Notes: generated by a model from the letters alone, not told the origin. 64,000 nucleotides of DNA from Candidatus Rickettsia vulgarisii (GCA_050920655.1 CP133317.1:1501168-1565167), one strand, 5' to 3'. Counted from the first letter of the stretch, positions 7,444-63,386 are shown. A program made the numbers and translations.

Positions 7444-7453
7444 GATTAATAAT

Positions 7454-7484
7454 AAAAAGAGGGAATATTATTCCCTCTTTTTAT
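7454..7484. terminator. Bidirectional rho-independent terminator between the convergent sca pseudogene and rpsD
   Basis: AAAAAGAGGGAATATTATTCCCTCTTTTT: an 8-9 bp GC-containing stem flanked by an A-run and a T-run. Confidence 0.6.
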
Positions 7485-7493
7485 TATTAAAAA

Positions 7494-8111
7494 TTATCTT
7501 GAATATAGCTCAACTACTAAATGTACTTCTGGTTCAAATGGATAAGGAACATCAGAAATTACTGGTGTTCTAATAAATTTTCCAGATAATGAAGTTGGAT
7601 CAAATGATAAGTAAGACGGAACAGTTCTCTCTTGTTTAGTTGCTGATTCAACTATAACAGGAATTTGTTTTGCTGAATCACGCAACTCAATAACATCACC
7701 TTCTTTTAGTCTCATACTAGGAATGTTAACTTTTTTGCCGTTTACTCTAATATGTCCGTGTGTAACAAATTGTCTAGCGGAAAAGATAGTTGGAGCAAGA
7801 TTCATTCTATAAACAACAGCATCAAGCCTTCTTTCTAATAAACCGACAAAGTTTTCTCCGGTATTGCCCTTCATTTTTAGAGCAAGAGCAAAAATATTCC
7901 TAAATTGTTTTTCATTAACACGACCATAATGGCATTTTAGTTTTTGCTTGGCCTTTAAGTGTAAACCATAGTCAGATGTTTTAATCATGGTATTTTGACC
8001 ATGTTGACCAGGGCGGTAATTTCTGGTGTTATAAGCGTCCTTACCAGTACCCCACAGACTTACTCCAAGTCTCCTACTTGTCTTATATTTAGAACTAATA
8101 ATTTTTGTCAC
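7494..8111 (-). CDS. rpsD: 30S ribosomal protein S4
   Basis: 205 aa. The sequence [10 protein letters not shown]...[16 protein letters not shown]...[11 protein letters not shown]...[21 protein letters not shown] is typical S4 with an S4 RNA-binding domain. Confidence 0.95.
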
Positions 8112-8148
8112 TCTTGTATCTCACAATTTCTTTAGCTAATGGAAAAGA

Positions 8149-8177
8149 AGTATATGTATTTTAAGAATTAAAGTCAA
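8149..8177 (-). promoter_or_regulatory. Sigma70-type promoter candidate for rpsD
   Basis: The minus strand reads TTGACT (8177-8172), a 17-nt spacer, then TATACT (8154-8149), about 38 nt upstream of the start codon. An AT-rich background raises the chance-match rate. Confidence 0.45.
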
Positions 8178-8346
8178 TAGACTTCTTCTACTCAATTTAA
8201 AGTATAAAATAAAATATAGTAGAGGATGAGTTTGTTAATAGTTATTTTTAGCACTTCTAATGTAGGTGATGCTTGTTACTTTTTTAGTATTTATGTTACA
8301 TGAAAATTACACCCATTTGTAATACATACAACAAAGTGAAATAGGG

Positions 8347-8374
8347 TATCATTCCAGCTTAAGCTGGAATGATA
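8347..8374. repeat. Perfect 28-bp palindrome (RPE-core-like hairpin)
   Basis: TATCATTCCAGCTT|AAGCTGGAATGATA. It resembles the CATTCC...GGAATG core of the RPE arms. Confidence 0.6.
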
Positions 8375-8412
8375 TATAATTTCTATAATTTCTATGCAAC
8401 AACGTCTAGAAT

Positions 8413-10356
8413 TTATCTAGTTCTTTCATCATTTCTGTCTTTAGAGGTAGAAACATTTATTTGAGGGGTAGACGGTGCTATTAGCTCCTTTACACTAACT
8501 TTCACACCATTTTGTTCTAACACCGCTCTTATTCGATCAGCTTGTTCACGAGAGTTTGCTTTAGCGCTAATTTCAAAAGTCCCTTGAGGTGGCTTTGTAT
8601 TAGTTTTTGTTTCTTGATTTTTAGTATTTAGCTGAGGAGATTTCGGTGTTTTTGATTCGTCTTGTTGTTTAGGTTGTCCACTTTGTTGTGATTATCTGCA
8701 GGATCGTTTGTTTTGCTTTGAGCAGCTTGTACTGCATTATGAATTATCTGATAAATCTACAAGCACATCTTCATTTTTTGATTTAGATTGTTCTTGGTTT
8801 TGCGGTTGAGGAGACTTCAGTTTATTATCTTGCTCTAAAGTCTTATCAGTTTTGTTTAGTGAATTCTTATTGAAGTTTCGTATCTCACTCATTAATGCCG
8901 GTATTCCAGTTAACTCTTCAGGAAGTTTATCAGGAAGTGCTCTATCATTAACAGGTTTTAGATTAGCTATTTTTTCTTGTTTTGGTGGAGATGGTGGCGC
9001 AGTGATTTTCGCTTCAAGATGTTGTTTTGGTCCTTGTTCAAGGGTTTGGCTTTTTGTTAATTTCTGTTCTACTGATAAATCAATGCCATGTCCTTTATTT
9101 ATAGCTACTTCTCGCATCATTTCTTGATATTTTTTACGAGTTACTGGCAGAGTATAAATTTTGCCGTTTTGTTCAATATAACCTACAGCTTTAGGGTCGT
9201 TACCATTAAACTTTATAGGGGGTGGAGAGCTTACTTCAAGTAGTTTTCCATTCTCATAATGAGCTGTAAAATAGACGGCTTTATTTTTATCAATATTTTT
9301 ACCATTTTGGTCTTTTACCGCTAAAGATAAATGCATTGTATCGTTATTATCTAATTTTAGTGGGAAATTAATAGTTCGGTAACTTTTAAGCTCTACATTA
9401 TTACCTTTACTATCTATTATTATATCGGGGGGAGTTACTTTGCGAGTTGATTCAGTTAATGTAGCAATTTCTTTGTTATCAGGACTTTTTACTATTTGAG
9501 ACCTAGTGCTAACATTGTCTTTCTCTAGTTCTGAGCCATCAGCCCATTGCATTGTTGAGAACCTATTTGCAAATTTTGTATGGATATCTTTGTAACCAGA
9601 GATTTCTACTTCTTCCAAAGACTTTTTTAACTCTGGAACTTTTAATGCTTGATTAATTTTTTCTTCATTCTCTTTATCTTTAGCAAATTCAGAGAATTTT
9701 TTAGGATCTTTAATATCTTCCTTTAAATGTTCAGCTATTAATTCTCTTTGTCTAGCTAGAAGTTCTCTGATAGCTTTAGTTATTGGATCTATTTCTTCTT
9801 CGGTAGAAGGAATGGGTTTTCTAGTTGTTGTGATATCAGAGATTGATCGGGGAATGAGATACTATCTACAGCTTCTTCTTGCTGGTTAGATTGTTGATTC
9901 TGGTTCATTACTATTCCGCTATCTTGACGTGAAAGTGGAGGTTGCTGCTCTTGTTCGATTGATACTTCTTGCTCAGGTGCTATTGGATCCAAGCTATAAT
10001 TTGCTGCTGGCACATATTCTCTATTTTCTAAAAAATCTTTACGAAATTGTTCTTTTCTTTCATCTTTCTGTTGATCAGTAAGTTGTGCAATTGTATTTTG
10101 ATCAGAAAAAAATTGCTCTACTGTAGCTACCCTCATATAACGTGCTACAGGATCATCTTCTTTATAATTTACAACAGTCCCTTTATCCAATAGATCTTTA
10201 GTTTTTTTTAAAGTCCTCTTCAGTTGTTTTCATTAAATAATCAATAACATCAGGATTTTGAGAATATGTTAATTTTTTTACATTTTTATATTCTTCTTCA
10301 CCAGTAACTATTTTAGGTTGTATTTGATCTTTTTCAGATTCATCTGTTTTGCTCAT
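8413..10356 (-). pseudogene. Large hypothetical protein gene with a beta-thymosin/WH2-like motif, interrupted by at least 4 frameshifts
   Basis: ATG at 10356 gives MSKTDESEKDQIQPK.... The frame breaks at the T8 run 10202-10209, continues in ORF 9789-10190, shifts again near 9790-9885 into the frame of ORF 8737-9618, and shifts at least twice more near 8690-8737. It finishes ...GTFEISAKANSREQADRIRAVLEQNGVKVSVKE... with a stop at 8413-8415. Confidence 0.6.
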
Positions 10357-21752: not shown

Positions 21753-24191
21753 ATGATGACTTTATTTAATAAGAAATTGGCCCATAAATTATTGGCTTCA
21801 ACTTTATTATCAAGCTTGTTAAATATTCCTAGCTCATTTGCGGCTAAGGAGGTTGTCCTAACAGGAAACAGCAGTAGTCCAGTAGGAGTTTCTTTTAATA
21901 ACGGTGATACTATTAAATTTTACTAATCCAAATAGTCAATTCTTGGATATTACTAACGGAACTGTAATAGGAGCTGTAAATAATAATGGACAGAGTAACA
22001 CCAAGATTGATCTTAGCGGGACTCACGTTACTGTAGGTTCAATAGGTAATGGTGACTCATTGCAAATAAACATGCCTAATTCTGCTACTCTTACTTTTAT
22101 CTGGTCAAGCAGGTGTAAATGCTCCTGGAGAAAATGATTATAGCGCTTTAAATTATTATTCTAGGTGAAGGTTGTGGGGTAGATATTAACGCGCCGATTG
22201 ATTTTTCTGCACATCTTTCACAGGCTCTTTAAACTCTAGCGGTTTAGTTATCAGTAGTAATAATGTTAAATATTTAAAAGTAAATGGTTCATCAGTTAGC
22301 GAATTTGGGCAAAGAACTATTTTTTCAAATAGTTCTTTAACAGTTGGAACAGATAATATTAATTTTGGTAATGTGATTACATTAGAAGGGGAAAATGCCA
22401 CTTTAAATGTGACTGGTAATAATCAAACAATTATAGCTTCTAATATAGGATTTGACAATAATAATGAAATTATAAATGTAACAGGTAGTTTAACCATTAG
22501 AGGTCCATTTGGGCAACCTACTCCTATACCTAATATCAATGTTAATAATGGAGGTTTTCTTAGATTGCCACCTGAATTAAACATTCACTCAACAATGACA
22601 ATTAATAATGGCACTCTGATTATAGATGCCCCAATTATGTCTTTAGCACCTATCGAAAATTTAATCTTAAAGAACGCTACTATAGATCTTGGCTTAAATC
22701 AATTAAACTACAATGGTAATGCCACTACATCAGGTACAATGCAATTAGGGATACTTATGACGCAAGAACGGAACAATCAGGGAAAATTGCGGTACTTGGA
22801 GGAGGTCTAGATTTATCAACACTTGATTCATTGGTAATTAATATTGATCCTGAATCTGGCTTATATGATCTACCTAATCAAAAATATTTCTATACAATAA
22901 TTGACGCTGATGGTGGTATAGTTACCCCTGTTGATAAATCAAAAATAATATTAACAGGCGCCTCGGATGCTAACCGTTACGCTGAGTATTCTGTAGGTAA
23001 TGATTTAGTGTTGCATGTTGAAGATCGCTCTCAAGAAATATTAATAACTGATTTGGTTGATTGGACTATTGATCCTAAAATCAGCTTATTACTCAGGAGA
23101 CTACTTTTGTTCAGTTGCTTCAATTATTAAATAATGGTCAACTAAGTGACGCAATTATATTATTAAATGATCTTGGTTTATCAAATATAGAAAGAGCAAG
23201 AGAAACATTAGATAGAATCATTACAGCGGTTCCGCCAAGAGTTAATGATTATCATCAGCAAACAAGGACGACATTTCATTTAACTAATAGTGAGATTAGT
23301 AAAAGAATGACTCCTGTTTCTGCTGGTTGTGATGATTATAGTAAGTCGTATGGATTATGGGTAAGTCCAATATATAGTAGGGGTATTAAGAGAACTGAAG
23401 GTGGAGTAAGCGGTTATAGATCCAAAGCTCAAGGTATGGTGTTTTGGATAGATACCCTGATTAACGATACTTATCTGGTAGGTCTATATTATGGACAGAT
23501 TTATGATAAATTAACTTATAGGAATCTTAAATATGGAGATAATACCAAAGGTCTAACCAATATCTTCTCTCTATATGGAGCATATAATGAGCCAAGTAGT
23601 CCATGGTTTACCGAAGGGGTATTATCTTATGCTAATACTAGAATAAAGGATCGTTCTGGTCGTAGAATATATAATGGTAATATAGAAACAGCTTTAGGAA
23701 AATATAAATCAAGAGCATATAGCGGTCAGGTAATAGAAGGCTATAATTTTAACTTAGCAAATGGTTTGATGTTAAGCCCAGTAGCAGGTTTAAGATATTC
23801 ATATTTTAGAGATGCTAGCTATCAAGAGACAGGTACTAGATTCCAAAATTTATTGATGAAGGGTAAATCATACGGTAAATTTGAAGGGATATTAGGATTT
23901 AGAACTAGCGGTGGCGTTGAATTTATCAAGCTAGCCTTAATGCCAGAGCTACATGATTATTTGGATTACAATTTTACTAACAAAAGATCTCCAACAATAG
24001 CGGCGACAATACAAGGGATTAGTGCGCCATTGGCAACCAAACAATATAAAACATCAAGAGCGTTATATACAATAGGTGGTAGTTTAACAACCAAATATAG
24101 GAAGGTAGAGTTAGGCGTGGGATTTGACGCTTTCTTAGCTAAGAAATACTATGCTTATCAAGGCAGTTTAAAAGTTAGGGCGAATTTTTAG
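21753..24191 (+). pseudogene. Sca-type autotransporter: signal peptide and passenger broken by several frameshifts or stops, 358-aa beta-barrel ORF intact
   Basis: MMTLFNKKLAHKLLASTLLSSLLNIPSSFAAKE is the signal peptide, followed by a stop at about 21925. Passenger pieces lie at 21904-22137, 22373-22810 and 22831-23130. The barrel ORF 23115-24191 has YGLWVSPIYSRG...GYRSKAQG and ends ...SLKVRANF. Confidence 0.75.
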
Positions 24192-39076: not shown

Positions 39077-41227
39077 GTAATTAATTATAATACTACTATA
39101 CAAGCCTTAGTTGCTAATAACAATATTAGCAATATAACGATTGGACAAAATAGAACACTTTCTATTGGTTCAATAATAGGTTCTAGCGAGATAACAACTA
39201 TTAGTATTGCTGTTTCCAGTTCTTATAGTAGTATTCTTAATCTTACTGGTAATCTAGGTGAAAATGACGTTGCGCCTTCTAATGACTATAGTTCATTAAA
39301 AAATATAGTTATTTATAATAGTGTTTCTACACAGAGTAATCTAAAAGGTAGTTACTTAAATATTAATGCTCCAATTACTCTTGATGCAATTATAACTGCT
39401 AATAGTTATTGTCGTAGTAACTTGAACATAAATGACAATATTACACTTAAACTTAATAATACAATTATTATTAATAATATGAATATGAATGTAAATATTA
39501 AAGAAGGTCATTCTCTAACTTTAACTAAGGATCAAGGGTTAATTAGTAAGACAGGAGGAGAATTCATTTTTAACCTATCAGATAACAGCGCATTAAATGT
39601 TAATGGCAATAATATAACTTTTAATGGTCCTATTAATTTTAATGAGCTGGAGCTACTTTAAATATCAATGGAACTGGAACCACTATCAATAGCGATCAAA
39701 CTTTTAACAATTCCACAATCAACTTAGGCTTAAATCAATTAAACTACAATGGTAATGCCACTACATCAGGTACAATGCAATTAGGGATACTTATGACGCA
39801 AGAACGGAACAATCAGGGAAAATTGCGGTACTTGGAGGAGGTCTAGATTTATCAACACTTGATTCATTGGTAATTAATATTGATCCTGAATCTGGCTTAT
39901 ATGATCTACCTAATCAAAAATATTTCTATACAATAATTGACGCTGATGGTGGTATAGTTACCCCTGTTGATAAATCAAAAATAATATTAACAGGCGCCTC
40001 GGATGCTAACCGTTACGCTGAGTATTCTGTAGGTAATGATTTAGTGTTGCATGTTGAAGATCGCTCTCAAGAAATATTAATAACTGATTTGGTTGATTGG
40101 ACTATTGATCCTAAAATCAGCTTATTACTCAGGAGACTACTTTTGTTCAGTTGCTTCAATTATTAAATAATGGTCAACTAAGTGACGCAATTATATTATT
40201 AAATGATCTTGGTTTATCAAATATAGAAAGAGCAAGAGAAACATTAGATAGAATCATTACAGCGGTTCCGCCAAGAGTTAATGATTATCATCAGCAAACA
40301 AGGACGACATTTCATTTAACTAATAGTGAGATTAGTAAAAGAATGACTCCTGTTTCTGCTGGTTGTGATGATTATAGTAAGTCGTATGGATTATGGGTAA
40401 GTCCAATATATAGTAGGGGTATTAAGAGAACTGAAGGTGGAGTAAGCGGTTATAGATCCAAAGCTCAAGGTATGGTGTTTTGGATAGATACCCTGATTAA
40501 CGATACTTATCTGGTAGGTCTATATTATGGACAGATTTATGATAAATTAACTTATAGGAATCTTAAATATGGAGATAATACCAAAGGTCTAACCAATATC
40601 TTCTCTCTATATGGAGCATATAATGAGCCAAGTAGTCCATGGTTTACCGAAGGGGTATTATCTTATGCTAATACTAGAATAAAGGATCGTTCTGGTCGTA
40701 GAATATATAATGGTAATATAGAAACAGCTTTAGGAAAATATAAATCAAGAGCATATAGCGGTCAGGTAATAGAAGGCTATAATTTTAACTTAGCAAATGG
40801 TTTGATGTTAAGCCCAGTAGCAGGTTTAAGATATTCATATTTTAGAGATGCTAGCTATCAAGAGACAGGTACTAGATTCCAAAATTTATTGATGAAGGGT
40901 AAATCATACGGTAAATTTGAAGGGATATTAGGATTTAGAACTAGCGGTGGCGTTGAATTTATCAAGCTAGCCTTAATGCCAGAGCTACATGATTATTTGG
41001 ATTACAATTTTACTAACAAAAGATCTCCAACAATAGCGGCGACAATACAAGGGATTAGTGCGCCATTGGCAACCAAACAATATAAAACATCAAGAGCGTT
41101 ATATACAATAGGTGGTAGTTTAACAACCAAATATAGGAAGGTAGAGTTAGGCGTGGGATTTGACGCTTTCTTAGCTAAGAAATACTATGCTTATCAAGGC
41201 AGTTTAAAAGTTAGGGCGAATTTTTAG
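39077..41227 (+). pseudogene. Sca-type autotransporter, 5'-truncated passenger plus an intact 358-aa barrel ORF (copy 2)
   Basis: The frame is open from 39077 (no ATG or signal peptide) through N/T/I-rich passenger repeats to 39661. The rest is the identical repeat, with the same frame disruptions as copy 1. Confidence 0.7.
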
Positions 41228-43640: not shown

Positions 43641-44395
43641 TTAAATTTCCCCAAAGCAAGTAACTAATTCTGTTTGAGTTAATCTTGATTTTGTAATTGA
43701 GTCGAATTCATTTACAAAATTTCCATCTTTTAATAACAATAACTTATCTCCATATTTAAGCGCATGCGCCATATTATGTGTAATCATAATACAGGTGGTT
43801 TTTTGTTGACATACAATTTCATCAGTTAATTTAATAATTAATTCGCTATTTGCGGGATCTAAAGCAGCTGTTATTTCGTCGAGCAATAATATTTAGAATC
43901 TTGAAGGATAGCCATTATTAAACTTAGAGCCTGTCTTTGTCCCCCAGATAAATTGCTGACTAATTCATCCATTCTGTTTTCTAACCCCATATTTAACATA
44001 CGTAATTTATCTTGAAATAATTCCATACGAAACTTGTTAGAAAAAAATTTGAAACTTCTGCGTTGACCTCGTTTAAACGCAAAAGTCATATTTTCAAAGA
44101 TAGTTATATTTTCGATTGTACCAATTTTATAATCTTGCATGACCTTTGATACTAAATTTGCTCTATGTATTTGCGGTATATTGGTAACATTTTTCCTATC
44201 AATAAGGATCTCTCTAGCATCAGGCCTCATAAAGCCTGATATAACATTTAATAGAGTTGATTTACCAGCGCCATTATTGCCTATAATTACTACAAATTCT
44301 TCTTTTTTAACATTTAGGTTTAATTGATTTAGGATTTTTCTCTCTAATTTTGTATTTTTGCCTAAGGTAACCTCAATATTGTTTAATTTTAACAT
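43641..44395 (-). pseudogene. ABC transporter ATP-binding protein, frameshifted
   Basis: The pieces are GNNGAGKSTLLN (Walker A), LSGGQRQALSL (signature) and, in another frame, LLLDEITAALDP (Walker B). The two ORFs are 43871-44395 and 43641-43886. Confidence 0.8.
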
Positions 44396-45228
44396 ACATG
44401 TCTCCTTGGCATATACATTATCATAATTACCATAATACCAGTAATTAGATTTAAATCTTTGATAGTGATACCTAATGCATCACTATATAGGGCAAAGCTG
44501 ATAAGCAATCTATATATAATCGAACCTACTAAGCAACTAGCTACTTGATTAATGGTGGATCTATATGGAAACACTTTTTCACCAATCATAACTGATGCAA
44601 GCCCTACAATTACTGTTCCTACTCCACTACCAACATCAGCAAAGCCTTGGTGTTGGCATAATAAAGAGCCTCCAAATGCAATTATAGCGTTGCTTAAGCT
44701 TAAGCCTATTATTGTCATTATCGTTATACTTACCCCACTATTTTGAGCTAATCTTTTATTTTGCCCAAGGACACGGAGAGCTAAGCCGAAATTTGTATTT
44801 AATAAATAATAATAAGGCAAGATATTAAGCTGACTATAATTAATATAAATATTGTTGAATGTAAAAATATTGTCTTTTTATCAAAGAGAGCAATATTAGG
44901 TATATCCCCCATAATATGTAAATTTATAGAATAGAGCATAAAGCTAACCAATATTCCAGCTAACAAATTGGTAACTTTAAATTTTGTGTATAATATTCCA
45001 GTTGTAATACCTGCAATACAACCGGCAAATACAGCTTGTAATCGTAGTAATCCAAGGGTTATATCCTGATTTTATTAATATACTAGAAACTGCAGATCCT
45101 AAAACAAAGCTACCATCACAAGTTAAATCTGGAAAATCTATAACACGAAACGTTAAATATATTCCAATAGCGACTATGCCGAATATGATGCCAATTTCTA
45201 CACTCATTATGATTTCGTTTAAAGTCAT
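44389..45228 (-). pseudogene. ABC transporter permease, fragmented
   Basis: Hydrophobic pieces at 44977-45228 and 44389-44820 are separated by a broken stretch. ATGA overlaps occur with both neighbouring genes. Confidence 0.7.
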
Positions 45229-49592: not shown

Positions 49593-50903
49593 TTATATTT
49601 CTCTAACAGGTTTGAAAGTTACTTCTCTTTTCTTAAAAAAACTCATCAAAGATTTTGGCTTTGATAAATCACGTTTATAAATTTTTCCAGTCATTTGTTC
49701 ATAATTAGAAATTAAGGATGTGATAACTTCATTATAATAGATTTTATATAGTCCTTGCATTGTTGCCATGGTTGTTAAATACCCCCATTTCATAACTTGC
49801 TGAGGTACCCTTGCCAATGCTTCAATACAAGCAATTGTTTCTTCGATTTCGGGATTACTGTGTTTGTATACATCAGCAACAGGCGCTAGATTAAACAGCA
49901 TGTCCTCAATCATTGCTTTAATCATTAATCCCATATATTGATCTTTCTTAAATCTTTGTATAAAGAGTAATTCTTTCTTATTGGCATTTAACAAGAATCT
50001 ATGTTTACTGACAAAGGCCAAAAATTTTGCAGTATATACTCTTATTCCTTTAATTTTATTTTTGTTATAAAATTTTATCTTTTCTTCATAAGTAATCATT
50101 TGTTTCATACCCAAAGATAAAAGATCAGTAAATAATTTGTTGCAGTGAGTAATATCGTTCCGACAAGCATTTTTAACATGAGGAGTTGCTTTTGTTCCAG
50201 CAAAATTTGCGGAATGACGACTTATTTGTTTGCCATGAGAATCTCTTTTTATATCAGCAAAATGTCCTAGTTCTTGAGCAGCGATAATCTGCATTCTAGC
50301 AACTGCTGCCCACCCATCCCCATAAGTTGGGTAGTCTTTGTTATTTTCAGCAAATGGATTTCCTCCACAAGAAACAAAAATAGCTACATTTTTTCCATCA
50401 GTACTTTGCATACCGCTATTGGAGCCAGCTTGTTGCCAGTCAACTATATCCATCATGTCACCAATATTATGAGAATAGGTGATAAAAACTTGGACTTTAT
50501 CATATAACAACCACCTGATTACTATAGGATGAGCTGATTGTACAAAGATTCGCGCTAAATTTTCAGTAACTTGTGGATTTACAGGTTGTAATTTTTGAAT
50601 TTGTTTTTTTAAGTCATTATAAATAAAAGCTAGCTTTTGATTAGTAAGGGATGATCCATATAAAGATTTAAATAACTTATTAGTTTCAGGAATTAATGTT
50701 GGATCTGTTATTTCTTCTTTACTTACCATCAAACTGAGATTGGATCTTGGATCTGAGAATCTAGCAAAATTACAGCTAGTATCAGTATCTATTCTAAGTT
50801 TTCCTGATTTAATTAATTGCTTAGCTAACTGCTCGTATTCCACTTGCATATCTGCTGGGTGAATATCAGGTACTTTGTCAAGAATATGATAAATTGAACT
50901 CAT
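49593..50903 (-). CDS. Hypothetical 436-aa protein with a degenerate zincin-like motif (QELGH)
   Basis: Intact ORF with no TM helix or signal peptide evident. IIAAQELGHFADIKRD (motif at 50262-50276) resembles HExxH with the first His replaced. Confidence 0.45.
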   Translation of the reverse strand: MSSIYHILDKVPDIHPADMQVEYEQLAKQLIKSGKLRIDTDTSCNFARFSDPRSNLSLMVSKEEITDPTLIPETNKLFKSLYGSSLTNQKLAFIYNDLKKQIQKLQPVNPQVTENLARIFVQSAHPIVIRWLLYDKVQVFITYSHNIGDMMDIVDWQQAGSNSGMQSTDGKNVAIFVSCGGNPFAENNKDYPTYGDGWAAVARMQIIAAQELGHFADIKRDSHGKQISRHSANFAGTKATPHVKNACRNDITHCNKLFTDLLSLGMKQMITYEEKIKFYNKNKIKGIRVYTAKFLAFVSKHRFLLNANKKELLFIQRFKKDQYMGLMIKAMIEDMLFNLAPVADVYKHSNPEIEETIACIEALARVPQQVMKWGYLTTMATMQGLYKIYYNEVITSLISNYEQMTGKIYKRDLSKPKSLMSFFKKREVTFKPVREI

Positions 50904-50954: not shown

Positions 50955-51479
50955 TTAAAGGAAGCTTCCAATTAATAATGTTTTTAAATATTTATTATAT
51001 TCATTAAATAATATTTTATATTTATTGTGCTCTATTAGTATCGGATGAGGTACGATAATAATATTATGGGTAGTTTTGGTTATATTATTTATAGCTACAG
51101 GCATATCATAAGAAGAATTGACTAATCGTATGGAACGAATATTATTATTTATAATAAACTCAACTACTTCTTGGATATCATCTTTTCCTGCATAGCTGCT
51201 ATTTGCATATATTACTTGGCTAGTTTTAACATTATATTCAGATAAGAGATTTTTTAATTGATTTTTTGACTCAATGCCAGCAATAAATAATATAGGAGCG
51301 TAACCGGCTTTTAATAGACTAATGCCAGTTTCTATTCTTTGTCTACCATCTAAAGATACTATAGCGTCAGTTGTAGTGCTATTATTGATTTTGTAAGATT
51401 CAACTGTATAAATATAATAAGCAAAGCCAACCACCCACAATAGAAATATTATAAAGATTGATAAAATAATATTTTTCAT
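50955..51479 (-). CDS. DUF218 (YdcF/ElyC/SanA-like) membrane-anchored protein
   Basis: 174 aa with an N-terminal TM helix, then DAIVSLDGRQRIETGISLLKAGYAPILFIAG...SSYDMPV, typical of DUF218. Confidence 0.7.
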   Translation of the reverse strand: MKNIILSIFIIFLLWVVGFAYYIYTVESYKINNSTTTDAIVSLDGRQRIETGISLLKAGYAPILFIAGIESKNQLKNLLSEYNVKTSQVIYANSSYAGKDDIQEVVEFIINNNIRSIRLVNSSYDMPVAINNITKTTHNIIIVPHPILIEHNKYKILFNEYNKYLKTLLIGSFL

Positions 51480-51529: not shown

Positions 51530-51844
51530 TTATGATAATTTTAATCCTATCATAGAAACTACCATAGTTGCTATAAAGAAAACTCTTGTTAAGGAACATG
51601 GTTCATTAAAATATAATATTCCTACGACTACTGTTCCTATAGCTCCTATACCCGTCCAAATAAGGTAAGCTGTACCAAGGGGTAGTTTATCAAGGGTTTT
51701 ACTAAGACAAAAAAAGCTTAATAAAGAGAAAACTATAAAGCCTATAGTATGTTTTATATTTGTAAAACCTTCTGATAGTTTTAATGATATAGAGAAACCT
51801 ATCTCAAATAATCCTGCCAAAATAAGTAATATCCAAGTGAGCAT
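51530..51844 (-). CDS. sugE: SMR-family small multidrug/guanidinium exporter (SugE/Gdx-like)
   Basis: 104 aa with 4 TM helices and the membrane-embedded Glu in AGLFEIGF. The sequence includes LGTAYLIWTGIGAIGT. Confidence 0.85.
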   Translation of the reverse strand: MLTWILLILAGLFEIGFSISLKLSEGFTNIKHTIGFIVFSLLSFFCLSKTLDKLPLGTAYLIWTGIGAIGTVVVGILYFNEPCSLTRVFFIATMVVSMIGLKLS

Positions 51845-51847
51845 ATT

Positions 51848-52873
51848 TTATCTTCCTTTTTCTATGGATTTATCTTTTTGTTGTAGCTTTTTATTAGCCA
51901 TATTTTCATGTAATATAGAGTTTTTATTATTTATATTATCAATTTTTATATTAGATGCTTGTATTTCAGTATTTAGTTGATTTATTTTGTCTATTTCAGA
52001 TTTTGCTAATAATTGTTCTTTATATAAAAATTCCTTATTATTTTTATTTATATTAGTTTTTAACAAGTTAATTTTTTCTTGTTCATTTATTACAGATTTA
52101 TCAATACTTAAAATTCTTTCTCCAATAGTTTCACCAATTTTTGGAGTGTATTTTACTACTAAAATAGCAGCAGGTACAACCATTAGAGCGGAGGATGCTC
52201 CTGCTGTTGCGACGGTAATAGTTCCAACAGCTACAGTGCAAATAGCTGTAATTACCTTGCTAGTTACTTGTCGGAATATTTCAATTTTTTTATAATGAGT
52301 AGATGCAATATTTACTATTTTGTCAAAATCTGATTTAACTTGTTGATTTATTTCTATAAGATTTTGATGTTTTTTTAGAGCGCTCATTACTGTTGTTTGA
52401 AATATTTCTGGTTCAGTTTGGATAAGATTTATTATTTCATAAGAGTTCTTTGCTGAAAATAAATTTTTGAGAATTAGTTTTAAATTATTTTTTTCTTTAG
52501 TATTTACATTAGGAAAATGAATATTGATTAAAGTATCAATAATAATATTTTCTGATTTTTGTAAAATATTATCATCTTGAAAATCTGTTGTTTCAGGGGA
52601 AATTGCAACAGCAAACAATGTTAAAATTGTAGAAAAACTATCGTCTGTTAAAACCTTTTGGCCTAAGAAAGATTTTAACTTGTATATACAATCATTTAAA
52701 TGGATTCTAATTTTTGGTATGGATTTTAATCTAATTTTATGATCAATAGCTATAATACGAGCAAGTGTTACACAAGCGTGATTTGTTAAATTGTTAACAA
52801 AAGCAGTACTAATTATTTTTTCGGCTACAGCAAGATCTGCAGCATCAAAACTGTCAATAAACTTATCATTCAT
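51848..52873 (-). CDS. Hypothetical membrane protein (341 aa; TM hairpin plus a C-terminal coiled coil)
   Basis: Soluble N-terminal region of about 205 aa, then the hydrophobic hairpin ITAICTVAVGTITVATAGASSALMVVPAAILVV, then an Asn/Lys-rich coiled coil. It lies 3 nt upstream of sugE. Confidence 0.45.
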   Translation of the reverse strand: MNDKFIDSFDAADLAVAEKIISTAFVNNLTNHACVTLARIIAIDHKIRLKSIPKIRIHLNDCIYKLKSFLGQKVLTDDSFSTILTLFAVAISPETTDFQDDNILQKSENIIIDTLINIHFPNVNTKEKNNLKLILKNLFSAKNSYEIINLIQTEPEIFQTTVMSALKKHQNLIEINQQVKSDFDKIVNIASTHYKKIEIFRQVTSKVITAICTVAVGTITVATAGASSALMVVPAAILVVKYTPKIGETIGERILSIDKSVINEQEKINLLKTNINKNNKEFLYKEQLLAKSEIDKINQLNTEIQASNIKIDNINNKNSILHENMANKKLQQKDKSIEKGR

Positions 52874-52885
52874 AATTTGCGTTTT

Positions 52886-53527
52886 CTATTGATTTAGCGC
52901 TAATTCTCTAATTCTCATTGTAAGTTTTGCAAATATCATATCCGGAGCTTTTTGTGTAGATAATTTATAAATAATATCTGGTTCTAGTATATCTTCTTTT
53001 TGTACTTCTATAGATAAAATAATGGTATTTTCTGGCATATTTGCATAAATTTCTCTAATAATTTGTCCAAAAGTTAGAAAATCTTGAGTAGCAAATTTTA
53101 TTTTAAGATCATAATTTCGTATTTTTACCCCATATTTTTCTCCACCTATATGTGGTTTGATATTGCTAAGAAATTCCTGCTTAATACTTGTTGTAATAGG
53201 TTCGTTCAGATTATATTTTTTTGAAAGATTTGTTATTTTGTTCATTACTTTTGTTCTTTCTAAGCAACTTTGCTTATAAGACATTGATAATAGATTCTTG
53301 TATTTAACATATGTATTTAATATTTTATGTTTCGAGTTTTTTATAGAATAAAGTTTGAGTGTTTCTTGGGCTAATAACTCCTCAGTTTGATATGTTTTTT
53401 TAATGGAATATTTATAATCTTGATTAAAAATCTGTAATAAAAACAATAATGAAGAGATGCCTAGAAAATACATCACTAATTTAAAAAATATAATATTTTT
53501 TAAATGAATAATAAAAATTCTGAGCAT
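52886..53527 (-). CDS. Hypothetical bitopic membrane protein (213 aa), PilO/GspM-like layout
   Basis: N-terminal TM helix (IIFFKLVMYFLGISSLLFLLQIF), a coiled segment, then a C-terminal strand-helix-strand pattern: DLKIKFATQDFLTFGQIIREIYANMPENTIILSIEVQKE...AKLTMRIREL. Confidence 0.45.
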   Translation of the reverse strand: MLRIFIIHLKNIIFFKLVMYFLGISSLLFLLQIFNQDYKYSIKKTYQTEELLAQETLKLYSIKNSKHKILNTYVKYKNLLSMSYKQSCLERTKVMNKITNLSKKYNLNEPITTSIKQEFLSNIKPHIGGEKYGVKIRNYDLKIKFATQDFLTFGQIIREIYANMPENTIILSIEVQKEDILEPDIIYKLSTQKAPDMIFAKLTMRIRELALNQ

Positions 53528-53530
53528 TAT

Positions 53531-55084
53531 TTATCCTCCGTTTTTAGAAATTATTATCGATAAAGGTATAACAATTCTGTTAGATAAATTAACTATTTGA
53601 TCATTAAATATTGTAATATTAATATCTACGCTACCAAAGATTTTTGTACTATCATCAATTTGTTGTTTTAAAATCTTCATAGCATCTTCAATATTTGTGT
53701 TTTCAATAATAAATTTTAAAAATATTTCAGTTTTTGTATATGGGTTTGGGGATAATAAAGTGCTATCTATATCTAATCTTCCCCATTTTATACCTTCTAA
53801 AAATAAGCTAGGAGGCAATTCTTTAACAAATTTTTCCAATAAATCAAATGGTATTGATGTAGGTGTTTGCAATAATGATTCAAAAATATACAAATCAGCT
53901 AAATTAATAGTATTTTGAATATAAGGATATCTTTGTTTTACATTGTAATATTCTTGTTCAGCGCTAGAATAATGTGAATGTAAGGTGGTTAATTTTTTGC
54001 AGTTTTCTAAGGTTTTTATTTTAGTAATACAAGCTGTAACTATTAAAAATATAATTATAATATTAAGTGGTTTAAAAACCAAAGAGTTAAAAATATTGAG
54101 TTTAGAGATAAGTTTCAAATTTTTATTATATGCTGAATGAGCCTTTTGTTCATTAAATAATTTTATAATTAAAGGATCTGCAAATTTATCACCTTCATTA
54201 AAGGTTTTTCCTAATAGCTGATTATAGGACTTACATATTAATTTATGTTCACCAAATCGAGAATGTTCTACTAATAATTTAAAATTTTCTTCAGCTATAA
54301 TAATAATACAGACTTTGAGATTTAAATTTTCAATATTATTTTTATAATTTATTAAACAATCACTAACTTCTTGTTCAATTATACCCTGAATATATAACTC
54401 AGACTTATCGGCTGGATAATCAAATCTTTGTATCTCAATTATATTATTTTTATGTTTAATAGTTAGATTGATACCGCTACCTTTCAAAATGCATACAAAA
54501 ACTTGAAAATATTCAGTATAAATTCCTTCGTTAGCTTTAGTAATGATTTTGTCGATGATTGTTTTTAGCTCTAAAGCCAAGAAATAAATACCGCTAAATT
54601 GTAACTCGGAATCTACCACTATATAGTCAATTAACTTACTCAAATATGGAGTATAATCACTAGATACTATTAAAGTATCCCAAGTTTCGCTTGATTTGGT
54701 ATTGATATTATAAATGCTGTATCCTACTATATTATCTTTAGGGAAATATTCTTCTATAAATTTTCCAACAGGGTTAGTTTTTACTATTGAGTGTAGTACT
54801 GGAATTATCTCATGACGTAGAGTACATTCAGAATTATTTAATAAAAGAAAAACATAAAATTTTTTAAATCTTTGGAAAAAATCATTATATAGATTTAAAT
54901 TGTCTCGATTTTCTAAGGGGATAAATAAACTATCTACAATTTTTTTATTAATGATAGCGAAAAGAAAAGTACCTTTGTCACTCACTAAAATAATAATATT
55001 GCGTCTATATAAAAAATATCTAAAGGATTTTAGTATATGTATTATATGTTCCTTAATTTTTGGTAAATTAAATATATTAGGCAT
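53531..55084 (-). CDS. Hypothetical bitopic membrane protein (517 aa), PilM-PilN-fusion / GspL-like layout
   Basis: The cytoplasmic region of about 335 aa has repeated beta-strand-like hydrophobic blocks. There is a single TM helix (aa ~336-355), and the C-terminal domain of about 160 aa starts FVKELPPSLFLEGIKWG. Confidence 0.45.
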   Translation of the reverse strand: MPNIFNLPKIKEHIIHILKSFRYFLYRRNIIILVSDKGTFLFAIINKKIVDSLFIPLENRDNLNLYNDFFQRFKKFYVFLLLNNSECTLRHEIIPVLHSIVKTNPVGKFIEEYFPKDNIVGYSIYNINTKSSETWDTLIVSSDYTPYLSKLIDYIVVDSELQFSGIYFLALELKTIIDKIITKANEGIYTEYFQVFVCILKGSGINLTIKHKNNIIEIQRFDYPADKSELYIQGIIEQEVSDCLINYKNNIENLNLKVCIIIIAEENFKLLVEHSRFGEHKLICKSYNQLLGKTFNEGDKFADPLIIKLFNEQKAHSAYNKNLKLISKLNIFNSLVFKPLNIIIIFLIVTACITKIKTLENCKKLTTLHSHYSSAEQEYYNVKQRYPYIQNTINLADLYIFESLLQTPTSIPFDLLEKFVKELPPSLFLEGIKWGRLDIDSTLLSPNPYTKTEIFLKFIIENTNIEDAMKILKQQIDDSTKIFGSVDINITIFNDQIVNLSNRIVIPLSIIISKNGG

Positions 55085-55194
55085 AAGAATTAATTAATAA
55101 ATCCTAAATTTTTTACTATACTGATTAGAATCTTTTAAGTATAAAAGATTTTGCATTGTCTAGAAATAGTTGGTATAATAGCTATACAAAATTT

Positions 55195-55334
55195 ATGTCA
55201 TTCTAGCTACGGCGGAAATCCAGTGGTGCATGCTGTGTCATCCCGAACTTGTTTCGGGATCTATTAGATGCTGAAACAAGTTCAGCATGACATAATTGAT
55301 ATTTTCTGGATCCCCGTCGTAGCTAGAATGACAT
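55195..55334. repeat. RPE-like composite element (140 bp) upstream of alaS
   Basis: ATGTCATTCTAGCTACGGCGGAAATCCAG ... GTCATCCCGAACTTGTTTCGGGATCTATTAGATGCTGAAACAAGTTCAGCATGAC ... CTGGATCCCCGTCGTAGCTAGAATGACAT. Confidence 0.8.
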
Positions 55335-55415
55335 AAATAATCGTTTTAACTATAATCTAGTTAATACTTTAAAAATTTTAATTATTAACATTAAATTACT
55401 AAAAAATGAACATCC

Positions 55416-58073
55416 ATGACTAAGCTTACCACTGAAGAAATTAGAAGTAAATTTATAAATTATTTTGTTGCAAATAATCATGTCCATGTACCAGCTAGTT
55501 CTTTGATACCTCATAATGACCCAAGCTTAATGTTTGTGAATTCTGGGATGGTACAATTTAAAAATGTTTTTACAGGTCAGGAAGTTAGGGAATATAACAA
55601 GGCAACTACTAGTCAAAAATCCCTGAGAGCCGGTGGTAAGCATAATGATTTGGAGAATGTTGGTTATACAGCAAGGCATCATACTTTCTTTGAAATGCTA
55701 GGGAATTTTTCCTTTGGCGATTATTTTAAAGAAGAAGCGATTTACCATGCTTGGAATCTTTTGACTAAAGAGTTTCAAATCTCTAAAGAAAAATTATATG
55801 TAACAGTTTACCATACTGATGATGAAGCTGCTTCCTATTGGAAAAAAGTAGCTAATTTAACTGAAGATAGAATTATCAGAATTAATACTAATGATAATTT
55901 TTGGTCGATGGGAGATACAGGACCCTGTGGTCCGTGTTCAGAGATCTTTTATGATCATGGAGATAAGATTCCAGGAGGACTACCTGGAACAAAAGATCAG
56001 GATGGAGATCGCTTCATTGAGATTTGGAATATGGTATTTATGCAATATGAGCAACTAGATGCCAATACTAGAATAGAGTTGCCTAAAAAATCTATTGATA
56101 CTGGGATGGGGCTAGAACGTATAAGCGCTGTTATGCAGAATGTTCATGATAATTATGATATAGATTTATTTAAGGAAATAATTGCAAGTGCAGAGAATAT
56201 AGTAAAAGTAAAAATAGAAGGGGAAGCTAAATTTTCTTATCGAGTTATTGCAGACCATTTACGAGCCTGTGCTTTTTTAATTGCTGACGGTATTATGCCG
56301 TCAAATGAAGGTAGAGGATATGTCTTAAGACGTATTATGCGTAGAAGTATGAGACATGCTCATATACTTGGTAGCAAGGAACCGTTAATGTATAAGTTAC
56401 TTCCTAAATTAGTGGATTTAATGGGAGGAGCCTATCCAGAACTCCGAAGAGCTGAAGAGTTTATCGGTAGTATTTTAGAACAAGAAGAAATACGATTTAA
56501 GGCTACACTTGAGCGAGGCCTTAAGTTACTTGACGATAAAACGAAGCATTTAAGCAAAAATTCTGTTCTTTCAGGAGAAGTAGCGTTCAAATTATATGAT
56601 ACTTATGGTTTTCCAGTTGATTTAACTGCGGATATTTTAAAAAACAAACAAGTATCAATTGATATTGATGGCTTTAATAACAAGATGCAAGAGCAGAAGG
56701 AAAGAGCTAGGAAATCTTGGTTAGGTTCTAATGAATCTAAAACTGATAAATTATGGTTTGATATTCAGTCAGAGTTCGGTAATACTGAGTTTTTAGGATA
56801 TTCTTTAGATGAAGTAGAAGGTAAAATATTAGCTTTAGTTAAGGATAATGTTTTAGTTAATACTATAGATAATGTAGGCGATAAATTTACTATAATTAGC
56901 AATCAAACTCCTTTCTATGGTGAGTCTGGCGGTCAAATGGGAGATATAGGATATATCAAAACCGCTAATTGTAAAATTAAAGTAGTAGACACTTTAAAAT
57001 ATCTTGGTGGGATAATAGCTCATATTTGTATTTTAGAAGAAGGGATAGGCGTTAAAATTGGAGATACGGCAGATTTTATCATCGATACTAAATATCGTAG
57101 AAATTTAAGAATTCACCATTCCGCAACTCATATATTACATGCGGTACTGCGTGAAGTACTAGGTAAACATATTACTCAAAAAGGCTCTCTTGTAGCAAGT
57201 GATCGTTTACGTTTTGATATTAGTTATGGAACAGCCATAACTAAAGAACAAATTATCTTGATTGAAGATAAAGTAAACCAAATTATTATGGATAATTCAA
57301 AAGTTGTCACAAATTTAATGTCTAAAGACGAAGCTATTAAATCGAGCGCTATGGCTTTATTCGGCGAGAAATATGATAATGAGGTAAGGGTTGTATCAAT
57401 GGGTAGGGATGAGGCTAAAGATGGTTCGTACTCTCTAGAGTTATGCGGCGGTACTCACGTTGCTAGAACTGGTGATATTGGGATGTTTAAGATCATAAGT
57501 GAAAGTGCGATTGCTGCGGGTATTAGAAGAATAGAAGCGGTATGCGGCGAATTTGTCTTGAAATTAATTAGGAGCAATGACGCTATTATAGAAAATATCT
57601 CTACTGCTTTAAAAATCGGTAAAAATGAAGTTGCTGATAAAGTTAATGATCTAATTACTAGTAAAAAAGAACTGTCAGATCAAATAATGTCTTTACAAGT
57701 CTCGATGCTTGATTTGAATATTGAACAGATTAATAAAGAAGCTGCAGATCTGTCAGGTATCAAGTTTATTTATAAATTGGTTAACAATCTTGATAATAAA
57801 ATATTGCGTTTATCAGCGGAACAAATAGCTAATAAATTAGATAATTTAGTGATTGTTTATATAAATAATACTGGAAAATTATCTATTACAGTTGCAGTAA
57901 GTAAAAAAATTACTGACAAGGTGAATGCTGGTACTATAGCTAAATCAATTTCATTATTTTTAGATGGAACAGGGGGTGGTAGACAAGCAACTATTGCTCA
58001 AGCAGGAGGTGTGGATACTAGTAAGCTACCTGAACTAAAAGATATGATAATAGATTTGCTACAGAAGTTATAA
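55416..58073 (+). CDS. alaS: Alanine--tRNA ligase
   Basis: 885 aa with FVNSGMVQFKNVF, the WNMVFMQYE region, HHSATHILH...CGGTH (editing/zinc motif) and a C-terminal DHHA1-like GGGRQ. Confidence 0.97.
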   Translation: MTKLTTEEIRSKFINYFVANNHVHVPASSLIPHNDPSLMFVNSGMVQFKNVFTGQEVREYNKATTSQKSLRAGGKHNDLENVGYTARHHTFFEMLGNFSFGDYFKEEAIYHAWNLLTKEFQISKEKLYVTVYHTDDEAASYWKKVANLTEDRIIRINTNDNFWSMGDTGPCGPCSEIFYDHGDKIPGGLPGTKDQDGDRFIEIWNMVFMQYEQLDANTRIELPKKSIDTGMGLERISAVMQNVHDNYDIDLFKEIIASAENIVKVKIEGEAKFSYRVIADHLRACAFLIADGIMPSNEGRGYVLRRIMRRSMRHAHILGSKEPLMYKLLPKLVDLMGGAYPELRRAEEFIGSILEQEEIRFKATLERGLKLLDDKTKHLSKNSVLSGEVAFKLYDTYGFPVDLTADILKNKQVSIDIDGFNNKMQEQKERARKSWLGSNESKTDKLWFDIQSEFGNTEFLGYSLDEVEGKILALVKDNVLVNTIDNVGDKFTIISNQTPFYGESGGQMGDIGYIKTANCKIKVVDTLKYLGGIIAHICILEEGIGVKIGDTADFIIDTKYRRNLRIHHSATHILHAVLREVLGKHITQKGSLVASDRLRFDISYGTAITKEQIILIEDKVNQIIMDNSKVVTNLMSKDEAIKSSAMALFGEKYDNEVRVVSMGRDEAKDGSYSLELCGGTHVARTGDIGMFKIISESAIAAGIRRIEAVCGEFVLKLIRSNDAIIENISTALKIGKNEVADKVNDLITSKKELSDQIMSLQVSMLDLNIEQINKEAADLSGIKFIYKLVNNLDNKILRLSAEQIANKLDNLVIVYINNTGKLSITVAVSKKITDKVNAGTIAKSISLFLDGTGGGRQATIAQAGGVDTSKLPELKDMIIDLLQKL

Positions 58074-63269: not shown

Positions 63270-63299
63270 ATGTCATTCCCGCCGTAGCTAGAATGACAT
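63270..63299. repeat. Short RPE-arm hairpin
   Basis: ATGTCATTC-CCGCCGTAGCTA-GAATGACAT: a 9-bp stem that mixes the two arm types seen elsewhere. Confidence 0.6.
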
Positions 63300-63386
63300 C
63301 CAATATATAGGTTATCTCATTTTACTCCATGTGACAACGCCAACATGAACTCACCATCATGGTTTTTATTGTCAGTTTTTATGATA

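Follow-up and report, generated by a model that had tools for sequence, protein, structure and literature searches.

A conserved membrane module of the Rickettsiaceae that probably derives from a PilM-PilN-PilO-type pilus scaffold

The closest described counterparts of the genes reported here are PilM, PilN and PilO of type IVa pili (T4aP) and GspL and GspM of the type II secretion system (T2SS). Type IV pili (T4P) are held to be ancestral in the Rickettsiales and to have been lost repeatedly in the crown families (PMC9352585, PMC10847448); their components are described as 'rarely' present in early-diverging or aquatic crown members of the order (PMC10847448), and Holosporales were scored with 'incomplete type IV pili' (PMC9992710). 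The secretome of Rickettsia has been summarised as Sec, Tat and the type I, type IV and type V secretion systems (T1SS, T4SS and T5SS; PMC9992710), and a survey of Tisiphia genomes reported only the rvh T4SS and the Rickettsiales amplified genetic element (RAGE; PMC9997750). No pil gene names were found in the supplements of PMC10847448, and no literature linking RP853-855 to PilMNO or GspLM, or Rickettsia to PilM or PilO, was found in the searchable library. Here, a cluster of three genes encoding proteins of 517, 213 and 341 amino acids (aa) was analyzed in a 64,000-nucleotide stretch of the genome of Candidatus Rickettsia vulgarisii (CP133317.1, 1501168-1565167), the whole of which is referred to as the window. 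Two of these genes probably encode a diverged pilus scaffold that has been repurposed, the 517-aa protein being a fused PilM+PilN and the 213-aa protein a PilO. The homology and the architecture taken by themselves are very probable, and for a role independent of a pilus the evidence leans only slightly in favour. A preliminary description of this DNA had put forward the same PilM-N/PilO (or GspL/GspM) interpretation, which is supported by structural similarity, by intact orthologues and by the fact that the families matched are uncharacterised.

The 517-aa protein gave no match to Pfam or NCBIfam (E ≤ 1) and is the founding member of an unannotated family. Its structure was predicted with AlphaFold2 (AF2) from an alignment of 26 homologues, with a predicted local distance difference test score (pLDDT) of 75.5. 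The model contains two β-β-β-α-β-α-β halves (aa 28-290), a long helix (aa 321-385) that includes the only transmembrane (TM) helix of the protein (Kyte-Doolittle window score 2.47), and a C-terminal α-β-β-α-β-β domain with a pLDDT of ~80-88 across most of its length. When this model was compared with the PDB using Foldseek, PilM of Pseudomonas aeruginosa was found at the top (5eoy/5eou, E 3e-9 to 6e-9, probability 1.0), and PilM occupied ranks 1-8 (E 3e-9 to 4e-8, target-normalised TM-score 0.47-0.55) with an alignment spanning ~350 columns. Further matches were the PilM chain of the Myxococcus xanthus model 3jc8, PilM of Thermus (2ych) and an uncharacterised actin-like protein of Bacteroides, and the cytoplasmic domains of EpsL, GspL and PulL (1yf5, 4pht, 5tkw) were matched with E values of 3e-7 to 4e-6. 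At the level of the modelled fold, the assignment to PilM/GspL is solid. The domain order of the model and the Foldseek results bear out the earlier view that this protein has the layout of PilM-plus-PilN or of GspL, and the hydropathy scan agrees with the topology proposed at that time, a cytoplasmic region followed by one TM helix and a C-terminal domain. The periplasmic domain would hold the position of PilN or of the periplasmic part of GspL, its fold being read from the α-β-β-α-β-β pattern alone. The superfamily as a whole conserves two residues of the protein, P412 and W434. Another ORF of 517 aa in the window (372-1925) was considered as a paralogue and rejected, as it encodes an unrelated polytopic membrane protein.

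As judged from sequence, the gene context of distant homologues is the decisive evidence for a predicted PilM-N/PilO identity. An exhaustive profile search yielded 369 representatives of the 517-aa family at 50% identity, with homology over the full length. They fall into two groups, a Rickettsiaceae-like clade whose members are 22-45% identical to the window protein and a second clade of ~20% identity that also matches over the full length; between the clades, the C-terminal TM and periplasmic parts were aligned by hhalign at 99.2% (E 1e-19, 190 columns). Clusters of the second clade have the order pilB-pilC-[5xx]-[~215]-[~300]-ABC, where 5xx denotes the homologue of the 517-aa gene. An ATPase with MshEN and T2SSE domains and a T2SSF platform protein are encoded directly upstream of the 5xx gene in loci L025, L028/L029 and L030. 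On its 3' side follow a gene for a bitopic protein of ~215 aa, a gene of ~290-370 aa whose product has a signal peptide, a Pro-rich linker and a β-rich domain, and usually an orphan ATP-binding cassette (ABC) ATPase of the ABC-2 type. A metagenome scan with a 12-sequence alignment added 31 loci, in nearly all of which the downstream genes are kept. The platform gene lies directly upstream in 20 of them and is accompanied by the ATPase gene in 12 of these 20, six of the other eight being cut by contig ends. Two ATPases of the PilT/PilU family and a tetratricopeptide repeat (TPR) protein are encoded just downstream on the opposite strand in 13 loci, the ATPases of L040 and L048 scoring 477 and 397 bits against an NCBIfam cut-off of 319. 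The upstream ATPase of the distant clade scores 489 bits as PilB and 485 bits as GspE, and GspF gives the platform protein its highest score (313 bits); none of these scores reaches its equivalog cut-off. An ATPase that equally resembles PilB and GspE, a GspF-type platform and PilT/PilU point to a divergent T4aP-like system. Some low-GC loci of the second clade retain the last four genes after loss of the ATPase and platform genes next to them, and one of these loci (L026) also adjoins alaS; such loci look like intermediate states. Among the distant loci, one carries the label 'Rickettsiales bacterium' and one 'Rickettsiaceae bacterium'.

The orphan ABC-2-type ATPase of these loci (L026-L030, L037-L063) is a DrrA/GldA/NodI-like protein of ~240 aa with no permease gene adjacent to it. 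It is 54-67% identical between loci and is encoded directly 3' of the module in most distant loci, even where pilB and pilC are missing (for example L028, 13569-14318, and L030, 13145-13864). The pilus-like clusters of L025, L028, L030 and L036-L055, with pilU, pilT and the TPR gene on the opposite strand, contain genes in the PilM/N/O/P positions that fall outside the families of Pfam and NCBIfam. In automated surveys, such clusters would count as incomplete, as was reported for Holosporales (PMC9992710).

The 213-aa protein belongs to the Pfam family RP854 (PF17460) with 169.2 bits against a gathering cut-off of 25. Hydropathy places an N-terminal TM helix at ~aa 12-30, and in the AF2 model (pLDDT 69.5) a long N-terminal helix is followed by a β-β-α-β-β domain. 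Among PDB entries, this model matched best with PilO in the T4aP machine model (chain 3jc8_Oa, E 3e-4), and the crystal structure of PilO (2rjz) was found at rank 13 (E 1e-2). Of the initial proposal that the protein is PilO/GspM-like, the architecture and the identity of the best match hold, but the fold match is weak, and the model-based assignment is suggestive only. When families were compared, the second gene of the pilB-pilC-linked clusters matched RP854 with an hhalign E value of 3.9e-4 over 116 co-linear columns. PHROGs gave one match (E 0.0085, function unknown), and a PADLOC match to PD-T4-6 (19.6 bits) on the Lys/Asn-rich coil of the protein was judged compositional.

A scan of species-representative genomes recovered 23 loci with a full-length homologue of the 517-aa protein, which span Tisiphia, Rickettsia (australis, tamurae, asembonensis, kotlanii and several endosymbionts) and deeper metagenome-assembled genomes of Rickettsiaceae/Rickettsiales, Tisiphia/Torix-type symbionts being the closest relatives of the window. 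By tblastn, all three homologues were detected in the order 517-213-341 in 18 of the 23 loci, and alaS adjoins the module in 19 of them as well as in L026, L031 and L032. Across both clades, a 213-aa-type gene adjoins the 5xx gene in nearly every locus (exceptions: L004 and L008). The cluster had at first been called an orphan; this is true insofar as no pilus or T2SS genes are adjacent, but the cluster itself is conserved across the Rickettsiaceae. Compared with the closest relative (L001), dN/dS was 0.14 for the 517-aa, 0.19 for the 213-aa and 0.17 for the 341-aa gene (alaS 0.08, sugE 0.11), and 0.23, 0.06 and 0.29, respectively, compared with a 64%-identical relative. On sequence grounds, the three genes are real and, as the low dN/dS indicates, maintained by purifying selection. 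Decay of the orthologues in relatives, which had been named beforehand as a possible outcome, was not observed: across the Rickettsiaceae the homologues are intact and syntenic.

The 341-aa protein belongs to RP853 (PF17542) with 205 bits, the gathering cut-off again being 25. Both RP853 and RP854 are uncharacterised Pfam families named after genes of R. prowazekii, and the earlier statement that none of the three proteins belongs to a nameable family was wrong for these two. The 341-aa protein consists of a helical N-terminal domain of ~200 aa, a TM hairpin (aa 207-239) and an Asn/Lys-rich coiled tail, hairpin and coiled coil having been recognised before and being supported by the hydropathy scan. 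RP853 does not have the layout of PilP/GspC (signal peptide or lipobox, Pro-rich linker and β-sandwich homology region domain) and shows the helical N-domain and the TM hairpin instead. Orthology to the third, PilP/GspC-like gene of the distant clade was rejected (hhalign E 0.29), as was an origin from a degenerate half of the GspF/PilC platform protein (hhalign E 0.68). RP853 is a Rickettsiaceae-specific, lineage-specific replacement of the ancestral third gene and stands outside the ancestral module. Among the deep loci of the window's clade, L031 has RP853 in third position, L033 an unrelated gene of 215 aa and L034 no third gene, and the contig of L032 ends within the third ORF. Since the pair is constant while the third gene varies, the conserved core is the two-gene pair. 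In L033 (10001-18592), the pair is located between gene-transfer-agent/phage-tail-like genes and mraY-murF-murE-ftsI and is followed by the 215-aa third gene.

The nucleotide-binding loops of the actin-fold domain were assigned via their position in the secondary structure and not by superposition. In the window protein the phosphate-1 loop reads S35-D36-K37-G38 and is degenerate in its clade, the Asp (D36) being kept in 37 of 106 own-clade sequences versus 39 of 52 distant-clade sequences; in the pilus-linked clade the motif G-D-[E/D]-G is well preserved. In the alignment, the phosphate-2 Asp is absent from both clades. The degenerate phosphate-1 loop together with the missing phosphate-2 Asp suggests that this domain serves for docking, as in GspL, rather than as an ATPase.

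Homologues of PilB, PilC, PilT/U and the linked ABC ATPase were found neither in the window nor in any Rickettsiaceae-type locus, and the window and the flanks of Rickettsiaceae-type loci yielded no pilin, prepilin peptidase or secretin. A motif scan of all ORFs of the window and of L001-L031 revealed no prepilin leader. The initial remark that no secretin, ATPase or pilin lies nearby therefore holds for the window.

Taken together, these results suggest the following model. The ancestral unit would have been the pair within a pilB-pilC...ABC cluster with pilT/pilU next door. In the Rickettsiaceae, the motor and platform genes would have become unlinked, the third gene and the ABC ATPase would have been replaced by RP853, and the pair would have been kept under purifying selection. 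By the models and by analogy, the 517-aa protein would cross the inner membrane once, with the actin fold in the cytoplasm and the coiled coil and α/β domain in the periplasm, and the 213-aa protein would pair with it via coiled coils and periplasmic domains, as PilN does with PilO and GspL with GspM. The actin-fold domain with its decayed nucleotide site may serve as a docking surface like that of GspL, not as an ATPase. The docking partner in the Rickettsiaceae would no longer be PilB/PilC; the large cytoplasmic domain of RP853 is the obvious candidate, making RP853 a plausible new partner of the scaffold. Its most likely present role is that of a repurposed inner-membrane scaffold. A further-reaching proposal, which we regard as tentative and rather doubtful, is that RP855-RP854-RP853 forms a functional machine of its own kind in all Rickettsiaceae, the pilus having been lost and the scaffold rewired to a new cytoplasmic partner. 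This partner could then be RP853 or a secretion ATPase such as rvh VirB11, a member of the ATPase superfamily that also includes PilB/GspE, and the machine could have an envelope role in obligate intracellular life.

Several results weigh against descent from a pilus scaffold that has been put to new use. In Pfam and NCBIfam searches at E ≤ 1 to 10, the 517-aa protein and 12 distant members did not match the models of PilM, PilN and GspL (PF11104, PF05137, T2SSL, GspL_C), the 213-aa protein did not match PilO (PF04350) or T2SSM, and sequence-profile searches of the PDB with the three families and the distant third gene gave nothing useful (517-aa protein: E ≤ 10). Of the profile or structural similarity by which the proposed identity was to be judged, the structural part was found in the Foldseek match to PilM/GspL, but a sequence-profile match to PilMNO/GspLM was not; both proteins are too diverged for current hidden Markov models (HMMs). 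The PilO match of the 213-aa model is weak (TM-score ~0.3, moderate pLDDT), and generic α/β folds of phage tail terminators score similarly. Paralogy of the PilN/PilO type between the C-terminal part of the 517-aa protein and the 213-aa family was considered and was undetectable (E 0.23); in the distant clade the same two parts aligned weakly across the TM/coil region (E 0.004). The absence of pilus genes covers the 64-kb window, out of a genome of 1.67 Mb, and the locus flanks. In L008, from a Tisiphia-type symbiont of Pseudomimeciton (6001-10196), an intact 517-aa homologue is followed by gyrB, and the 213-aa and 341-aa homologues of this organism are found on another contig, so that the cluster can be split without gene loss. 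Fragmented matches to the 213-aa and 341-aa proteins were seen in L011.

A complete working T4P or T2SS-like machine, whose other components lie elsewhere in the genome and are possibly diverged, is an unlikely explanation. The genes of the module itself escaped annotation and others might have done so too, purifying selection acts on all three, and Tisiphia, as an early branch of the Rickettsia lineage, can be set beside the rare T4P components of early-diverging or aquatic crown Rickettsiales (PMC10847448). Further, a low-GC relative without adjacent pilB/pilC, from JGI 3300059473, has, ~3.5 kb downstream of the module and after the ABC ATPase and PhoH, a gene of 226 aa that contains the prepilin-peptidase N-domain only (PF06750), which shows that unlinked pilus genes can persist. 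However, PilB, PilC and PilT are 53-82% identical among the distant loci and would be easily detectable, yet neither they nor ORFs with prepilin leaders turned up in the window or the Rickettsiaceae-type loci. The module also persists in Rickettsia, whose summarised secretome comprises Sec, Tat, T1SS, T4SS and T5SS (PMC9992710), the Tisiphia survey names only the rvh T4SS and RAGE (PMC9997750), and the window's clade carries a replacement third gene and a decayed phosphate-1 motif.

It is improbable that the 517-aa protein serves in cell division or envelope growth as an actin-fold membrane protein, FtsA-like or otherwise, and that only the shared ASKHA fold makes it resemble PilM/GspL. FtsA structures match its model almost as well as PilM does (E 1e-7 to 1e-6), sequence-level membership in pilus families is lacking, and in L033 the pair adjoins mraY-murF-murE-ftsI. 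FtsA, however, is a peripheral, bona fide ATP-binding protein encoded in the dcw cluster, which attaches by a C-terminal amphipathic helix and has no TM helix or periplasmic α/β domain. Moreover, PilM ranks first, the GspL cytoplasmic domains match too, adjacency to dcw genes occurs in one context only (L033), and full-length homologues lie between pilC and the PilO-like gene in at least 20 independent loci, with pilT/pilU alongside. Least credible of all is that the trio is a non-functional remnant awaiting decay. Its partner genes are gone, its nucleotide-binding motif has decayed, the matches in L011 are fragmented and dN/dS is somewhat above that of alaS; but dN/dS values of 0.06-0.29 are far below neutrality, invariant residues are maintained, the 517-aa gene is intact even where it is split from its partners, and the ORFs are intact across genera at ~30-85% protein identity, including pathogenic Rickettsia and deep Rickettsiaceae. 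The repurposed PilM-N/PilO scaffold is therefore the reading that we prefer.

The positions of the genes and predicted domains are given in Table 1. The ORF listing agrees exactly with the preliminary description of three intact minus-strand ORFs, with gaps of 3 nt between the 517-aa and 213-aa genes, 12 nt between the 213-aa and 341-aa genes and 3 nt between the 341-aa gene and sugE, and the peptide strings quoted at that time were found in the translations. No terminator-like site was found within the cluster by a terminator scan, and sugE is probably co-transcribed with the trio. It lies 3' of the trio in L001-L003, L005 and L006 and not in the genome loci of Rickettsia proper; sugE is a neighbour only in the Tisiphia-type lineage. 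A promoter scan gave 51 sites versus 46 expected, which is not above chance and uninformative in AT-rich DNA, and no RNA family was found by Rfam at 49-56 kb.

Table 1. Features of the three-gene cluster and its neighbours (window coordinates)
Feature	Position	Strand	Basis or remark
517-aa gene	53531..55084	-	ORF call; no Pfam / NCBIfam family
213-aa gene, RP854 family (PF17460)	52886..53527	-	Pfam 169 bits; predicted structure
341-aa gene, RP853 family (PF17542)	51848..52873	-	Pfam 205 bits; hydropathy scan
104-aa SMR/SugE-type efflux gene	51530..51844	-	Pfam PF00893, 95.6 bits; NCBIfam SugE
alaS	55416..58073	+	divergently transcribed, conserved neighbour of the trio
divergent intergenic region, alaS / 517-aa gene	55085..55415	.	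presumed promoter site; holds palindromic element
predicted cytoplasmic actin-like (ASKHA-fold) domain, ~aa 26-300 of 517-aa protein	54185..55009	-	
single TM helix, aa 335-353 of 517-aa protein	54026..54082	-	hydropathy
predicted periplasmic C-terminal α-β-β-α-β-β domain, ~aa 395-515 of 517-aa protein	53540..53902	-	

The spacer between alaS and the 517-aa gene contains a nested palindromic element of 148 bp (55191-55338), which is reminiscent of Rickettsia palindromic elements and has arms of 33 nt (91% complementary) and 28 nt (86%). A partial copy, a related 23-mer, is present at 63279-63301; by chance, none would be expected. On the 3' side of sugE, a membrane-anchored protein of 174 aa without a family and a DUF2748 protein of 436 aa (646 bits) are encoded (49593-50903 / 50955-51479), and both genes are kept alongside the cluster in the closest relative, L001. 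Short, fragmented ORFs are present at ~35-49 kb of the window. Two of these (43871-44395 and 44389-44820) overlap, and the first is weakly similar to ABC ATPases in their N-terminal part. The two look like pieces of one ABC transporter gene that was split or became a pseudogene, in keeping with the gene decay remarked on earlier for this neighbourhood. Two ORFs of 358 aa (23115-24191 and 40151-41227), ~17 kb apart and identical in at least their first 120 residues, indicate a recent segmental duplication or a repeated element.

Although Rickettsia species have some of the most reduced and most studied genomes of all bacterial pathogens, no function has been assigned to their RP853-RP855 orthologues. 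Descent of two of them from a pilus scaffold would provide a structural identity for conserved genes so far called 'hypothetical' and a model that can be tested, that of a membrane heterocomplex with a cytoplasmic docking domain. It would also be an example of exaptation, in which a scaffold is retained after the genes of motor, platform and filament were lost or unlinked, and would bear on how ancestral machines are dismantled in intracellular lineages. In related bacteria, the new family would fill the PilM/N/O-type gap in a type IVa pilus cluster that is widespread and poorly annotated, and HMMs built from the 517-aa family would sharpen the reconstruction of pilus loss across the Rickettsiales.

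Compared with known systems, FtsA (4a2a, 7q6f, 3wqt) shares the ASKHA fold with the 517-aa protein, which differs in its TM helix and periplasmic domain of ~160 aa and in its context, alaS or pilB-pilC, with dcw genes only in L033. The 213-aa and 341-aa proteins clearly belong to the Pfam families RP854 and RP853, respectively, for which neither a function nor a structure is annotated. To PilM-PilN-PilO of T4aP, as described from P. aeruginosa, Thermus thermophilus and M. xanthus (5eou, 2ych, 2rjz, 3jc8), the pair is linked by the cytoplasmic actin-fold domain, by bitopic partners with TM helix, coiled coil and predicted α/β periplasmic domain, and by distant family members that occupy the PilM/N/O slot of pilB-pilC...pilT-pilU clusters. 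It differs in that PilM and PilN would be fused in one polypeptide and in that the nucleotide site of the window protein is degenerate, whereas PilM binds ATP (PDB entries 5eou, 5eq6); further, the Rickettsiaceae loci have no linked pilB, pilC, pilQ or pilin, and their third gene is RP853, which is not PilP-like. GspL-GspM of the T2SS (EpsL 1yf5, GspL 4pht, PulL 5tkw) shows the identical order of domains on a single chain followed by the gene of a small bitopic partner, and has in common with the 517-aa protein a docking domain that is predicted to be non-catalytic; in addition, the platform protein linked to the distant clade scores best as GspF. In Rickettsiaceae-type loci, however, no GspE was found to which such a domain could bind, and the ancestral cluster contains PilT/PilU and has no pseudopilin block between F and L, which makes it T4aP-like and not a T2SS.

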